Shown here: in pieces, positions 1,682 through 5,797 of the stretch | Numbering within the stretch: the stretch's first letter is position 1 | How the letters are laid out: each line of letters begins with the position of its first letter | Virus record (IMG/VR): IMGVR_UViG_2568526100_000007 | Source: a virus | Lineage: Duplodnaviria > Heunggongvirae > Uroviricota > Caudoviricetes | Direction: 5' to 3' (one strand) | DNA length: 7,616 nucleotides | The notes under the pieces: model-generated | The model's database searches: none | Seen by the model: only the letters and a program-made list of their open reading frames with translations | Told to the model about the DNA's origin: nothing | Position numbers and translations under genes: made by a program

Positions 1682-2367
1682 ATAACCAGTATTTACAGTT
1701 TGTTCGTGAGCAACTCATTATCGCCACCGCCGATTTGAGTGGGGCAACAAAAGGTCAGCTTGAAGCCTGGCAGGAGAATGCCATGTTTGATACAGGGCGT
1801 TACAGACGTAAAAAAATCCGGTACCGCGATAAGGTCACTGGAAAAATGGTAACGCTGGATAATCCACCGATCCCGGGAAAGCAATCGCTGGCGAAAGGTT
1901 CATCAATTGCCCTAGTCAGTCCGGTTGAGTTTTCGACATCATCATGGCGACGCGCCGTTCTGTCTCTTGAAGAGCATCAGAAGGCGTGGGTACTGTGGGT
2001 ATACAGTGAAAATCCGAGTTGGGATTATCAGGTGGTCATTGCGAAATGGGCGTGGGATAAGTTTCAGGTGCATTTTGGCACCAGAAAAATTACAGGGAAA
2101 ACGCTTGAGCGTCTGAAGAAATTAATCTGGCTGGCGGCGCAGGATGTCAGGGGGAGGATTACTGGGTGTGACGTCTACCAGCGACAGGAACTTGCCAGAC
2201 TGTGTGGAGTTAAGTCAGACAACTGGAGCCACAATTATGCGCACTACTGGCGTGATATGTGCGACATTTTTAAGAACCTCGACAACGAATCTTTGATTTA
2301 TACCATGAAAACAAGATCGCAACAAAAAGCGACCTTTTCGCGGCGGGTTATTGCAAAAGTCAATTAA
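1678..2367 (+). CDS. Phage antitermination protein Q-like (late gene regulator), 229 aa from ATG 1678; the track's alternative start is GTG 1672.
   Basis: ATG 1678 overlaps the rusA stop (ATGA at 1678-1681) with GGAG 7 nt upstream; size and position (rusA, then Q, then late region) are typical of lambdoid and Stx phages. The family call rests on synteny and general resemblance, not on a search. Confidence 0.65.
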   Translation: MNNQYLQFVREQLIIATADLSGATKGQLEAWQENAMFDTGRYRRKKIRYRDKVTGKMVTLDNPPIPGKQSLAKGSSIALVSPVEFSTSSWRRAVLSLEEHQKAWVLWVYSENPSWDYQVVIAKWAWDKFQVHFGTRKITGKTLERLKKLIWLAAQDVRGRITGCDVYQRQELARLCGVKSDNWSHNYAHYWRDMCDIFKNLDNESLIYTMKTRSQQKATFSRRVIAKVN

Positions 2368-2379
2368 ATCGCGTACATT
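2351..2379 (+). promoter_or_regulatory. Candidate Q-dependent late promoter (pR'-like): -35 TTGCAA (2351-2356), 17-bp spacer, -10 TACATT (2374-2379).
   Basis: Hexamers each 4/6 to the sigma70 consensus with a 17-bp spacer, overlapping the Q stop codon, which is where pR' lies in lambdoid phages. Confidence 0.2.
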
Positions 2380-2432
2380 TCGTGTAAATCTGATATTTTG
2401 CTGATTTTGTACACGATGGCAAACTAAACAAA

Positions 2433-2458
2433 GCCTGCTGCTGAGCGGGCTATCTTTT
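2433..2458 (+). terminator. Candidate tR'-like intrinsic terminator: stem GCCTGC / GCGGGC (one G-U pair), 6-nt loop, then TATCTTTTGT.
   Basis: Hairpin followed by a U-rich tract about 70 nt downstream of the Q stop; analogous to the pR'-tR' arrangement of lambda. Confidence 0.3.
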
Positions 2459-2639: not shown

Positions 2640-2867
2640 ATGCCGAAATATCTAACACTTGCCGCTCGCGCGATCCTCTCACCTGAGAAGATCATCAAAA
2701 AAATTGCAGATATAGCTTCCATGTGTGATGGAAAAGAAGCTAAGCATGAAAGTGACAAGTTTTTCATTGATAGTAATGGTTCGATGGTTTTGAATCGCAA
2801 CAACGCTGATGTGCAAAAGGCTTTCGCAGCCAATATTAAGGGATTGAGTACTAAGAAGAAGGGTTAG
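2640..2867 (+). CDS. Small basic hypothetical protein, 75 aa (cassette gene 1). Start chosen at ATG 2640 rather than the track's 2583.
   Basis: GGAGG at 2630-2634, 5 nt before ATG 2640; Lys-rich hydrophilic product (MPKYLTLAARAILSPEKIIKKIADI...STKKKG); low-GC; stop TAG 2865-2867 lies 6 nt before the next gene's ATG. Confidence 0.55.
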   Translation: MPKYLTLAARAILSPEKIIKKIADIASMCDGKEAKHESDKFFIDSNGSMVLNRNNADVQKAFAANIKGLSTKKKG

Positions 2868-2873
2868 TCTTCT

Positions 2874-3671
2874 ATGTGGGCTGCGCTGATTGTTATTGTT
2901 TTAGTTTGTGGTTATCACTATACCAACTGCCATTTGCCGTCACGATACCGTCAAAGCAAAGCGATCGGTTGGAATGCATACTTTGATGTTGCACTGAAAG
3001 GTGGTGAGTTTCTCATAAGTGGTATTCTTATCGCTGCCTTATTGGTTGTTGTTCTGTACGCTGGAATGTCACTTTGGAACATTCCAGCGTACTTGTTTGG
3101 TTGGTACGCTCCCTTTACTTTCGCCCATGACTTTCTCAAAATGCAAGTGTTTGGGTTGAGCATGTTCCCTGCTATGTCGATAGCTTTCACTATTATTGTA
3201 AGTATCGGGAAGGCATCAGAGGCAACCAAAAACCATAAAGACCCACAAAAGCGCAAGGCTATTTTTGAAGAAATTGCGGCTCATAGTGCCGTGGAAAATA
3301 TCCTTCTTGAATCAGTTGAGCGTGGATTGTTATTGTTGGTTACACTGAAGTCTCGCAAGGTCTATGTGGGGATGATTGATGAGGCACGTTTCAATCAGTT
3401 AGATACTAACACATTGGTGCTAATCCCTTTTATGTCCGGGTACAGAGATAAAGATACTCTGACTTTTTGTGTTGAGCATAATTATGTGGACTACTACCTT
3501 AGTCAGGGTATCACATTAACTTCTGAGCCATTGTCAGTTTATCAGTTTAGGCATGTGTTGCCCTTCGATCAGATCGAATCTTTTTCGCTGTTTAATGTTG
3601 AAACATTCGAGACTTTCAAGGCAGGTATTGAAGGGAAGAAGGCCACTGAAGTACAGAATCAAACAAGTTAA
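2874..3671 (+). CDS. Membrane protein of unknown function, 265 aa (cassette gene 2): about four predicted transmembrane helices in residues 1-115, then a roughly 150-aa soluble C-terminal domain.
   Basis: Hydrophobic stretches WAALIVIVLVCGY, FLISGILIAALLVVVLYAGMSLW, AYLFGWYAPFTFA and VFGLSMFPAMSIAFTIIVSIG; long ORF in AT-rich DNA, where chance ORFs are unlikely; tightly linked to gene 1; intrinsic terminator just downstream. Confidence 0.7.
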   Translation: MWAALIVIVLVCGYHYTNCHLPSRYRQSKAIGWNAYFDVALKGGEFLISGILIAALLVVVLYAGMSLWNIPAYLFGWYAPFTFAHDFLKMQVFGLSMFPAMSIAFTIIVSIGKASEATKNHKDPQKRKAIFEEIAAHSAVENILLESVERGLLLLVTLKSRKVYVGMIDEARFNQLDTNTLVLIPFMSGYRDKDTLTFCVEHNYVDYYLSQGITLTSEPLSVYQFRHVLPFDQIESFSLFNVETFETFKAGIEGKKATEVQNQTS

Positions 3672-3690: not shown

Positions 3691-3716
3691 AAACCCGCCA
3701 TTGAGCGGGTTTTTTG
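3691..3716 (+). terminator. Rho-independent terminator closing the two-gene cassette.
   Basis: Perfect 8-bp stem AAACCCGC / GCGGGTTT (3691-3698 and 3705-3712), 6-nt loop CATTGA, followed by a T-run; 20 nt after the stop at 3669-3671. Confidence 0.75.
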
Positions 3717-3833: not shown

Positions 3834-4031
3834 ATGCTAAAACAGCAGGATATGACCGAAACTGCCAGAGTGGTGTTTAATGAATTAAGCGTCACCGAAC
3901 CGGCGACCGTCGGGGAAATTGCGCATAATACTTACCTTTCACGCGAACGTTGCCAGTTAATACTGACCCAGCTTGTTATGGCGGGTCTGGCAGATTATCA
4001 GTTCGGTTGTTACAGACGCCTTCCTCAGTGA
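3834..4031 (+). CDS. Small hypothetical protein, 65 aa; possible winged-helix DNA-binding protein (a PapI/FaeA-like resemblance is tentative).
   Basis: ATG preceded by a purine-rich AAAAGGGAAAAGG; segment TVGEIAHNTYLSRERCQLILTQLVMAGLA resembles a helix-turn-helix recognition region; lies immediately upstream of the methyltransferase. Confidence 0.5.
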   Translation: MLKQQDMTETARVVFNELSVTEPATVGEIAHNTYLSRERCQLILTQLVMAGLADYQFGCYRRLPQ

Positions 4032-4180: not shown

Positions 4181-5230
4181 ATGAAAAATACTGTAAAAAT
4201 AAACAGTGTTGATTTAATCAACGCTGATTGCCTGCATTTTATTCAGTCCCTGCCTGATGATTCCATTGACCTGATTGTTACCGATCCGCCGTATTTCAAA
4301 GTGAAACCCGAGGGCTGGGACAATCAGTGGAAGGGCGACGATGATTACCTGAAGTGGCTGGACCAGTGTCTGGCTCAGTTCTGGCGGGTGCTGAAACCTG
4401 CCGGAAGTCTTTACCTGTTCTGTGGCCATCGCCTGGCATCTGATATCGAAATCATGATGCGTGAGCGGTTTAACGTGCTGAACCATATCATCTGGGCAAA
4501 GCCGTCCGGACGCTGGAACGGGTGTAACAAGGAAAGCCTGCGGGCGTATTTTCCGGCCACAGAGCGCATTCTGTTCGCGGAACATTATCAGGGGCCGTAT
4601 CGCCCGAAAGATGATGGCTGTGAGGCGAAGGGCAGGGCACTGAAACAGCATGTGATGGCCCAGCTGATTGCTTACTTTCGTGATGCGCGCGCGGCCCTGG
4701 GGATAACGGCAAAACAGATTGCAGATGCCACAGGAAAGAAAAACATGGTGTCGCACTGGTTCAGTGCCAGTCAGTGGCAGCTACCGAACGAAAGCGATTA
4801 TCTGAAATTACAGTCGCTGTTTGCCCGGGTGGCAGAAGAGAAACATCAGCGGGGAGAACTGGAAAAGTCCCATTACCAACTGGTCAGCACATACAGTGAG
4901 CTGAACCGGCAGTATGCGGAGCTGCTGAGTGAATATAAACATCTGCGGCGGTATTTTGGCGTGACGGTGCAGGTGCCGTATACCGATGTGTGGACGCATA
5001 AACCGGTGCAGTTCTATCCCGGGAAACATCCGTGCGAAAAACCGGCAGAAATGCTGCAGCAGATAATCAGCGCGAGCAGTCGTCCTGGTGACATGGTGGC
5101 GGATTTCTTCATGGGTTCTGGCTCAACCATAAAGGCGGCTATGGCGCTTGGGCGTCGTGCAATTGGTGTTGAGCTGGAGACCGGACGTTTTGAGCAGACA
5201 GTCAGGGAAGTTCAGGATTTAATCGTTTGA
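4181..5230 (+). CDS. DNA methyltransferase, beta-class N6-adenine/N4-cytosine type (DPPY motif), 349 aa; apparently an orphan phage methylase.
   Basis: Catalytic motif IV IVTDPPYF (nt 4283-4294) near the N-terminus and SAM-binding motif I FFMGSGST near the C-terminus (nt about 5104-5127), the order typical of beta-class amino-MTases; no restriction endonuclease gene in the window. Confidence 0.85.
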   Translation: MKNTVKINSVDLINADCLHFIQSLPDDSIDLIVTDPPYFKVKPEGWDNQWKGDDDYLKWLDQCLAQFWRVLKPAGSLYLFCGHRLASDIEIMMRERFNVLNHIIWAKPSGRWNGCNKESLRAYFPATERILFAEHYQGPYRPKDDGCEAKGRALKQHVMAQLIAYFRDARAALGITAKQIADATGKKNMVSHWFSASQWQLPNESDYLKLQSLFARVAEEKHQRGELEKSHYQLVSTYSELNRQYAELLSEYKHLRRYFGVTVQVPYTDVWTHKPVQFYPGKHPCEKPAEMLQQIISASSRPGDMVADFFMGSGSTIKAAMALGRRAIGVELETGRFEQTVREVQDLIV

Positions 5231-5279: not shown

Positions 5280-5355
5280 GGCCCTTTAGCTCAGTGGTGA
5301 GAGCGAGCGACTCATAATCGCCAGGTCGCTGGTTCAAATCCAGCAAGGGCCACCA
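5280..5355 (+). tRNA. ileZ: tRNA with CAU anticodon, ileX/ileZ-like (tRNA-Ile2 read via lysidine, or formally tRNA-Met), 76 nt.
   Basis: Hand-folded cloverleaf: acceptor GGCCCTT/AAGGGCC, D-stem GCTC/GAGC, anticodon loop CTCATAA, T-stem GCTGG/CCAGC, 3' ACCA; close to the recalled E. coli ileX sequence. Confidence 0.85.
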
Positions 5356-5362
5356 TCACATA

Positions 5363-5439
5363 CCGCCATTAGCTCATCAGGAAAGAGCGCCAGCCTTCGA
5401 AGCTGGCTGCGCGGGGTTCAAGTCCCCGATGGCGGTCCA
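5363..5439 (+). tRNA. argN: tRNA-Arg, anticodon UCG, 77 nt.
   Basis: Hand-folded cloverleaf: acceptor CCGCCAT/ATGGCGG, D-stem GCTC/GAGC, anticodon stem CCAGC/GCTGG with loop CTTCGAA, T-stem CGGGG/CCCCG, 3' CCA encoded. The symbol is assigned by position in the ileZ-argN-argO cluster of Stx phages. Confidence 0.85.
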
Positions 5440-5452
5440 TTATCTGCATCAT

Positions 5453-5529
5453 GCGTTGTTAGCTCAGCCGGACAGAGCAATTGCCTTCTAAGCAATCGGT
5501 CACTGGTTCGAATCCAGTACAACGCGCCA
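5453..5529 (+). tRNA. argO: tRNA-Arg, anticodon UCU, 77 nt.
   Basis: Hand-folded cloverleaf: acceptor GCGTTGT/ACAACGC, D-stem GCTC/GAGC, anticodon stem ATTGC/GCAAT with loop CTTCTAA, T-stem ACTGG/CCAGT, 3' CCA encoded. Confidence 0.85.
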
Positions 5530-5570: not shown

Positions 5571-5767
5571 AAATGTCTCACAATTCAGACGGTTGACTGT
5601 TGTCTGGTTTGCGGGGAGTTTGTTAAAAGAAACTGGCATGGTGAATCCCCCTGTGCGGAGGGGCAATCAGCGAGTAGGTATATGGGATAATCGCGGATTC
5701 AGGTGCTGGTACTGAATTCACCGGGAGGCACCCGGTACCATGCAATGGCACATAGCGCCACTCTCCA

Positions 5768-5791
5768 GCCCCTCTCCGGAGGGGCTTTCTT
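5768..5791 (+). terminator. Terminator-like hairpin in the intergenic slot upstream of nanS-p.
   Basis: Perfect 7-bp stem GCCCCTC / GAGGGGC with loop TCCG, followed by TTTCTT. Confidence 0.4.
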
Positions 5792-5797
5792 GTGGGC

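Follow-up and report, generated by a model that had tools for sequence, protein, structure and literature searches.

A probable phage 82-type late promoter region upstream of a two-gene cassette in a lambdoid Escherichia coli prophage

We analysed a stretch of 7,616 nucleotides (nt) from the virus record IMGVR_UViG_2568526100_000007, referred to throughout as the window; coordinates are positions within it, and features lie on the + strand unless stated. The window covers the late-control region of a lambdoid Escherichia coli prophage; several complete genomes, NZ_CP027134 among them, match it at 100% identity. Comparison with relatives makes it highly probable that positions 2351–2460 form the late promoter region of this prophage (the promoter pR′, a pause and Q-loading site and the first terminator), operating with an antiterminator of the phage 82 family. 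To judge by sequence the module is of the phage 82 type, a well-known kind that is ordinary for such prophages, and we infer its start site, pausing, Q loading and read-through from homology to phage 82. The sequence-only reading of this DNA had placed a lambda-like pR′-tR′ arrangement upstream of a cassette. A pR′-tR′ module does lie directly after Q, but its type is that of phage 82 and not that of lambda, as judged from a Q of the Q82 family, a pause element spanning +6 to +14 and a predicted pause at +25; the pause element at 2391–2399 had been overlooked. The gene for Q and the predicted parts of the module are listed here.

1678–2367, +: Q antiterminator gene, full length, 229 amino acids, PF06323
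2351–2356, +: −35 hexamer of pR′, TTGCAA, within the last Q codons; invariant in 22/22 distinct relatives
2374–2379, +: −10 hexamer of pR′, TACATT; 17-nt spacer from the −35 hexamer
2386–2388, +: AAA run with the predicted start (+1 = A2386); A at +1 and +3 in 22/22 and at +2 in 21/22
2391–2399, +: TGaTATTTT, like an extended −10 with its TG at +6/+7 and its hexamer at +9 to +14; predicted sigma70-dependent pause element, from conservation and phage 82 geometry
2400–2411, +: GCT (+15 to +17), AT-rich GATTTTG (+18 to +24) and predicted pause site T/A at +25/+26 (T2410/A2411)
2397–2423, +: predicted leader hairpin in the nascent RNA, +12 to +38, from the minimum-free-energy fold of 2386–2460
2432–2460, +: first terminator, T1, the putative tR′, with stem-loop 2432–2451 and tail ATCTTTTGT at 2452–2460, from a terminator scan and covariation

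The late promoter region and its relatives

A profile search places the Q protein in PF06323 (E 1.5e-83), the Q82 family among the three families of Q, none of which is related to the others (PMC9388147). Identity to phage 82 Q (X92588) is 68% across 100% of the length of that protein, and identity to the Q of phage 434 ("Q82-like") is 63%; the gene in the window is annotated in NZ_CP027134 as antitermination protein Q; a search of the PDB by sequence returned no relative. Neither the protein nor the promoter-proximal element is of the lambda type, the former being PF06323 and not PF03589, and the latter being TGaTATTTT at +6 to +14 and not an AACGAT-type element at +1 to +6. The Qin prophage of E. 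coli K-12 served as a specificity control: on a similar backbone it carries a lambda-family Q (YdfT, PF03589), followed by the lambda-type element AACGATGGG and not by one of the Q82 type. Because Qin pairs a lambda-family Q with a lambda-type element, the type of promoter-proximal element tracks the Q family on related prophage backbones. The lambda-type late promoter of Qin lies downstream of ydfT (locus L115, 4300–4500, minus strand) and is accompanied by its AACGATGGG pause element and by the terminator AAACCCGCTGATGAGCGGGTTTTGT. Pause and start-site maps from K-12 were considered as a proxy, by way of Qin, and were rejected since YdfT is a lambda-family Q.

Within the promoter, the Q stop codon TAA (2365–2367) sits inside the 17-nt spacer, and TCGTGT separates the −10 hexamer from A2386, at or close to which transcription presumably starts. 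From about 100 Q82-family loci in annotated genomes, phages, species-representative genomes and viral contigs we obtained 22 distinct promoter–leader sequences, including those of E. coli, phage 434, Gifsy-1 (Salmonella), CobraSix (Enterobacter) and an Atlantibacter prophage. All 22 keep TTGCAAAA (−35 to −28) as well as T−12, A−11 and T−7 of the −10 hexamer, the middle of which varies (TATATT, TACGTT, TATGTT, TATACT). A sigma70-like promoter overlapping the Q stop had been proposed from the window alone; it is present there, and its key positions are invariant in the 22 relatives. Sequence in the phage 82 record goes no further than the stop codon of Q; it ends ATATTGCAAAACTGGATTAA and has TTGCAA at the same distance from the stop as in the window. 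The Rfam isrJ model, which represents an RNA mapped by primer extension, begins UGUAAAUCUGAUAU, 3 nt upstream of the A homologous to +1, and extends to the terminator, with which it ends.

In phage 82, the Q-binding element and the pause element are contained within −31 to +30 (PMC4914094), and in this interval many positions from −23 to −1 are conserved in 19–22 of the 22 relatives. Further downstream, +6T, +7G, +9T, +10A, +11T and +14T of the pause element are invariant (22/22), and TGaTATTTT occurs only once in the 13.5-kilobase (kb) prophage segment reaching the lysis genes, which likewise holds a single pR′-type module. The 60-nt non-coding leader is 72–90% identical to that of same-reading-frame relatives, compared with 45–76% for the third positions of the last 99 Q codons and a background of ~45–50% past the terminator. 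We count this conservation of the leader beyond that of the adjacent coding sequence, together with the end of homology at the terminator, in favour of the late promoter module. The region is also widespread: ~1,850 of 5,426 complete E. coli genomes match 2300–2460 at ~75–90% identity, always under an annotated antitermination protein Q, and at least 12 independent records carry exactly the sequence of the window.

The start of the leader, from 2386 to 2411, reads AAATC TG A TATTTT GCT GATTTTG TA and is separated by a further 20 nt (2412–2431) from the T1 stem-loop. The conservation across the 22 sequences, from the −10 hexamer through the leader, is the signature of two −10-type elements, the second of them with an extended TG. 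The pause-inducing element of phage 82 is nearer to TATAAT than that of lambda and includes an extended −10 motif; next to it, +15 to +17 is GCC, an AT-rich stretch lies ahead of the pause, pausing occurs at +25/+26 with U as the natural base at +25, and heterogeneous initiation by slippage is cited for this promoter (PMC5001585). A single register, with +1 at A2386, accommodates all of the published positional features of phage 82 pR′, with GCT at +15 to +17 in place of GCC. Among the relatives, +15 to +17 is GCC in 17 of 22 (GCT in the window), and T is found at +25 in 20 of 22 and in the window. We also considered TGaTATTTT as the promoter itself and rejected it, given that it has no usable −35 (ranked 295th or worse by weight matrix) and that the homologous IsrJ RNA contains the element.

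On the minus strand, an antisense promoter-like site directed into Q (TTGCCA-16-CAAAAT, 2422–2395; 9/12 consensus matches, weight-matrix rank 10) combines two conserved leader elements in reverse complement, GGCAA and the tail of the pause element. For phage 434, the record marks a CII site (TTGY-N6-TTGY) and the −35 of paQ overlapping the end of Q; the window equivalent of that CII site is TTGC-N6-CCGC, with the second half-site lost.

The module closes with T1, whose stem-loop (AGCCTGCT-GCTG-AGCGGGCT) has 8 pairs, 5 of them G–C, and a predicted free energy of −13.2 kcal/mol, and begins 53 nt after the −10 hexamer and 47 nt after the predicted start. This roughly matches the hairpin and U-tract that had been anticipated about 70 nt downstream of the promoter. 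Nearly all of 44–45 distinct relatives have a hairpin and T-run in the same region, ending at +49 to +79, with stem cores that differ from one another (CCCGC/GCGGG, CTGCC/GGCGG, CCACC/GGTGG, CCTGTC/GGCAGG, GCCTCG/CGAGGC and GCCCGAGG/CCTTGGGC). When 18 distinct leaders were folded with RNAalifold, the terminator helix emerged as the consensus structure, with compensatory double changes in 6 of its 9 pairs.

By homology with phage 82, the module would work as follows. Polymerase carrying sigma70 would initiate constitutively at about A2386 from TTGCAA-17-TACATT; sigma70 would stay on the enzyme and re-bind TGaTATTTT (+6 to +14), and the complex would scrunch and pause at +25/+26 (T2410/A2411). 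In a lysogen lacking Q, the polymerase would escape and terminate at 2432–2460, giving an RNA of ~73 nt that is a divergent relative of IsrJ. On induction, Q (1678–2367) would bind a DNA site beside the paused complex and join the polymerase, presumably with the help of NusA, which assists phage 82 Q. The Q-modified, terminator-resistant polymerase would then read T1, the cassette, the second terminator T2 (3691–3716) and later hairpins before reaching the holin and lysozyme genes ~5.7 kb downstream. Promoter, pause element, predicted pause site and terminators now have base-level coordinates in the late switch of an E. coli prophage family that is widespread, its pR′ region being common to ~1,850 genomes; such coordinates make RNA mapping and in vitro work with Q82 on natural variants straightforward.

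The two-gene cassette and its expression

Between T1 and the remainder of the late operon lies a cassette of two genes, the distribution of which indicates that it is an autonomous mobile unit, found also in contexts without Q.

2640–3671, +: two-gene cassette, comprising a 75-amino-acid open reading frame (ORF) at 2640–2867 and a 265-amino-acid membrane protein at 2874–3671
2513–2541, +: candidate cassette promoter TTGCCG-17-TACACT, 98 nt upstream of the ORF1 ATG, 10.3 bits
3691–3716, +: T2, the second terminator, corresponding to tR′ of cassette-free relatives by alignment with AR_0013, SCU-171 and O111

Of the ~1,850 E. coli genomes with this pR′ region, only 14 carry the cassette, the GC content of which is ~0.40 compared with ~0.50 in the flanks. 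Against the cassette-free AR_0013, SCU-171 and O111, homology extends to ~2427–2449 and resumes at ~3691–3710, and in each of these three the one tR′ and its flank line up with T2 and the sequence 3′ of it. The hairpin at 3691–3716, taken earlier for the terminator of the cassette, is accordingly not peculiar to it, being homologous to tR′ and its flank in relatives that have no cassette. A prophage of O113 holds a different insert in the same terminator–insert–terminator layout, and in other relatives the slot behind pR′ is occupied by a DUF5677 protein, a Ser/Thr kinase with a PP2C phosphatase, a membrane protein (phage 434) or tRNAs. The T1 variant of the window occurs in 14 loci (13 identical from leader to T1, plus strain 41) and is always followed by the upstream sequence of the cassette. 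We found no direct repeats or transposition hallmarks flanking the cassette. In six relatives (L006, L013, L005, L011, L108 and L110), homology breaks at the cargo slot in or beside terminator hairpins of the CCCGCC...GCGGG type. Such hairpins may act as recombination joints.

The small and large cassette ORFs travel together in Serratia, Yersinia, Proteus and Photorhabdus, in differing contexts: in a Serratia prophage they follow a Q-like gene from another family (phrog_753), in Yersinia and Proteus phages they lie inside tail-gene clusters, and in Photorhabdus they occupy a chromosomal site that is not of phage type. P2-like phages encode distant homologues (~30%) of the large protein following an unrelated small ORF, which has no detectable similarity to the 75-amino-acid ORF of the window. 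Terminators bracket the cassette upstream and downstream almost everywhere, the exception being the Yersinia upstream spacer, where none was seen; the downstream hairpins in Serratia and Yersinia closely resemble T2. As its joints fall on terminator hairpins, the cassette appears to bring or share tR′-like terminators on both sides.

The cassette proteins matched nothing in Pfam or NCBIfam, and neither matched a PADLOC defence model at E up to 0.1. The 265-amino-acid protein belongs with phrog_3630, an unannotated family restricted to Enterobacterales. Its structural model (predicted local distance difference test score, pLDDT, 86) has an N-terminal helical membrane region and a C-terminal beta domain, and in a fold search the latter drew Sm/LSm-like matches that were only weak, none of those in the PDB reaching E ≤0.001. 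Invariant residues of the large protein form a KSRKVYxG motif (159–166) and cluster around P185, S188, G189, R191 and D194. Its coding sequence also contains a perfect 14-base-pair inverted repeat, GTACGCTGGAATGT / ACATTCCAGCGTAC, with a 9-nt loop (3056–3092).

Since the cassette points the same way as the late operon and sits behind pR′ and ahead of the lysis genes, it should be transcribed by Q-modified polymerase once the prophage is induced, and such read-through is to be expected from its position and from the known processivity of the Q-modified enzyme. The sequence-only reading had gone further, seeing no convincing sigma70 promoter between 2460 and 2640 and suggesting late control as for Shiga toxin (Stx), with read-through perhaps the chief source of cassette transcripts. 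The first point is contradicted by TTGCCG-17-TACACT at 2513–2541, the top sigma70-like site of the whole window on both strands by weight matrix, albeit with a score that ~12% of shuffles of the AT-rich spacer reach. The second is argued against by the presence of the cassette as an autonomous, terminator-bracketed unit in tail-gene, P2-like and non-phage settings.

We would put at about even the chances of the following account: that the module is a real pR′-tR′ and the cassette an autonomous moron, expressed in the lysogen from a promoter of its own (candidate 2513–2541), insulated by T1 and only incidentally subject to late read-through. The varied contexts in which this terminator-bracketed unit is found argue for self-sufficient expression over an Stx-like late dependence, and its low GC content marks it as separately acquired. 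The best sigma70-like site of the window falls in the spacer between T1 and ORF1 and is unchanged in the 96%-identical strain 41 copy; every cassette copy has an AT-rich upstream spacer of 190–400 nt, and five other independent copies have a site of 9–12 bits placed 64–117 nt upstream. An own promoter is therefore plausible, although these scores are not individually significant (7–27% of shuffles match each) and no conserved cassette promoter could be demonstrated, the upstream spacers of diverged copies being unalignable and the strain 41 copy too similar. In phages, moreover, the unit is mostly co-oriented with the late operon, so that read-through could serve there too, and the need for expression in the lysogen is an assumption. 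The cassette being a separate mobile unit, an induction-dependent expression like that of Stx should not be assumed.

Another possibility, which we regard as unlikely, is that a constitutive pR′ and a deliberately leaky T1 (tail AUCUUUUGU) provide low expression of the cassette in the lysogen, the late promoter doubling as a lysogenic one. The U-tract of T1 scores 3.50, the lowest of 14 first terminators (the others score 4.40–6.23), while its hairpin energy is normal; this variant is found only with the cassette, and pR′ promoters are constitutive in lysogens (PMC7547250). The U-tract score is, however, a crude proxy for termination efficiency, and the next-lowest value (4.40) is that of the Gifsy-1 IsrJ terminator, which is known to work and yields a discrete RNA (PMC2330248).

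The remaining annotated features of the window lie to either side of Q and the cassette.

314–1309, +: DUF968/NinG-like gene
1322–1681, +: rusA
3834–4031, +: small winged-helix-like ORF
4181–5230, +: DNA methyltransferase
5280–5529, +: three tRNAs
5607–5797, +: STnc100 RNA, Rfam match, 134 bits
from 6020, +: SASA-type esterase

Beyond the window, holin, lysozyme and Rz-type genes are intact in the full record, ~5.7 kb downstream of the late-control module. The tRNAs are Met (CAT), Arg (TCG) and Arg (TCT) by ARAGORN, the first being annotated as Ile in the RefSeq record, and the trio is placed where Stx phages have ileZ-argN-argO upstream of stx; there are no stx genes here. STnc100 stands downstream of the tRNAs and ahead of the esterase gene, and relatives carry copies too, with two to three in tandem in AR_0013.

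The leader RNA and alternatives to late control

The Rfam isrJ family (RF01393) coincides with the short pR′-to-tR′ transcript of Q82-type phages. The promoter–leader core of Gifsy-1 coincides with the isrJ match itself (100.3 bits; L016 3047–3121), that of CobraSix scores 62.6 bits directly after the Q stop (L014 1581–1654), and the Atlantibacter match, at 41.6 bits, passes the cut-off (L018 2206–2285). In Gifsy-1 an isrK-orf45-anrP insert comes between Q and the module, which a remnant of a Q 3′ end (ATTGCAAAACTGGATTAA) still precedes. The ~74-nt IsrJ is transcribed in Salmonella lysogens from a promoter of its own; primer extension placed its 5′ end, and the last U of its terminator set its length (PMC2330248). 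As IsrJ is a mapped RNA made in lysogens, transcription from the Q82 type of promoter starts in lysogens and stops at the first hairpin. We found no passage describing IsrJ as a late-promoter by-product in the IsrJ and IsrK literature examined. Linking it to the pR′-tR′ by-product of Q82-type phages offers natural leader variants for the study of sigma-dependent pausing and of small RNAs (sRNAs) from antiterminated promoters.

The leader hairpin (~+12 to +38) falls into three distinct classes, TTGCC...GGCAA (E. coli), GTCG...CGAC (isrJ type) and GCTGCC...GGCGGC (Klebsiella/Enterobacter type), which align out of register, so that covariation of this hairpin by a single alignment is not clean. 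A hairpin of different sequence stands at the equivalent place in the isrJ consensus structure. A short leader class (phage 434, VR50) is without the leader hairpin and terminates at +28 to +52.

These observations bear on whether the leader is conserved chiefly for a trans-acting sRNA of ~73 nt, like IsrJ or StxS, with late control only a part of its role. The higher-scoring relatives of the transcript are IsrJ, which affects Salmonella invasion (PMC2330248). Both the constitutive activity of pR′ in lysogens and the capacity of tR′-terminated by-products to be regulatory RNAs are documented, StxS being an Hfq-dependent regulator (PMC7547250); the recurrence of a leader hairpin across sequence-distinct classes points the same way. 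The most conserved positions are, however, exactly the DNA-level promoter and pause elements, which suffice to explain the conservation of the leader, and the middle of the RNA differs from that of IsrJ. We therefore think a predominantly sRNA role doubtful. It is still more improbable, in our view, that pR′ and the degenerate U-tract of T1 have been co-opted together, such that a fixed fraction of polymerase leaks into the cassette in the lysogen, the ~73-nt RNA acts in trans in the manner of IsrJ, and tR′-type hairpins serve as joints for cargo swaps behind pR′ across Q families.

Several points weigh against the assignment of 2351–2460 as a phage 82-type late promoter region. pR′ matches the consensus at 8 of 12 positions only, for which reason it is absent from the list of a 9/12 consensus scan (by weight matrix, at 9.9 bits, it ranks third among all placements on both strands of the window). 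Matches of 8/12 are common, and the window scan returned 17 terminator-like sites where 8 were expected; as consensus matching alone cannot tell the module from chance, the case rests on the comparison with relatives. TATATT, present in 8 of 22, is the commonest −10 form and stronger than the TACATT of the window; T is found at the third position in 11 of 22. At +17 the window has T where phage 82 has C, a position at which C-to-A halves the half-life of the phage 82 pause (PMC5001585). The register itself derives from published positional statements and homology. Window 2383–2453 aligns with isrJ from end to end, but at 21.7 bits (E 0.022) against a gathering score of 37, which makes its RNA a divergent relative and not a formal isrJ member. 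The U-tract of T1 is the poorest of the 14 first terminators, which leaves its termination efficiency uncertain, and the prophage could be defective.

That a cryptic prophage has inherited the module in inactive form, or that a promoter-like sequence and a hairpin stand side by side by chance, is nevertheless very improbable: the 8/12 promoter missed by the consensus scan and the departures from the family majority at the third −10 position, at +17 and in the T1 tail are set against a full-length Q, intact lysis genes downstream, the retention of every position invariant in the family and the recurrence of the exact sequence in at least 12 independent records, and chance is excluded by the conservation and terminator covariation results.

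Comparison with known systems

The closest known counterpart of the module is pR′ of phage 82 itself, with which it shares the Q family (68% identical), the placing of TTGCAA relative to the Q stop, a predicted start on an A-run, the extended −10-like pause element at +6 to +14 and a short terminated transcript as predicted. Beyond the pause element the window has GCT for the GCC of phage 82 at +15 to +17, then an AT-rich stretch and T at +25, where phage 82 has U in its RNA. The window differs in its −10 hexamer (TACATT), in having T and not C at +17, in the interruption of the T1 U-tract, and in the 1.2-kb two-gene cassette and second terminator inserted between the leader and the remaining late operon.

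IsrJ of Gifsy-1 (RF01393) has the same class of promoter and pause element, an identical first 14 nt, the same two-hairpin layout ending in an intrinsic terminator and a similar length (~73–75 nt). It differs from the window RNA in ~24 nt of the middle, a divergence reflected in the sub-threshold score of the latter, and in position, the Gifsy-1 module being split from Q by the isrK-anrP insert whereas that of the window abuts Q.

The pR′-tR′ modules of lambda (6S RNA) and of Stx phages (StxS) resemble that of the window in general plan: a constitutive late promoter just after Q with a sigma70-dependent promoter-proximal pause, a terminator that yields a short RNA in the lysogen, and Q-dependent read-through into accessory and lysis genes. 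Lambda differs in its unrelated Q family (PF03589) and in its pause element, AACGAT at +1 to +6, with pausing at +16/17. The short RNAs of lambda and the Stx phages are also longer than that predicted for the window, lambda tR′ terminating at +193 (PMC4914094) and pR′ and tR′ of the Stx phage lying 258 nt apart (PMC7547250), and the accessory genes of the window appear to form an autonomous unit with a candidate promoter of its own.

In this last respect the cassette recalls the morons of lambdoid phages. These are accessory gene units with their own promoter and terminator. The cassette shares with them a low GC content, bracketing by terminators, presence in a minority of homologous prophages and a slot also used by unrelated cargo; it differs in that its own promoter is a prediction and in that its joints coincide with terminator hairpins.

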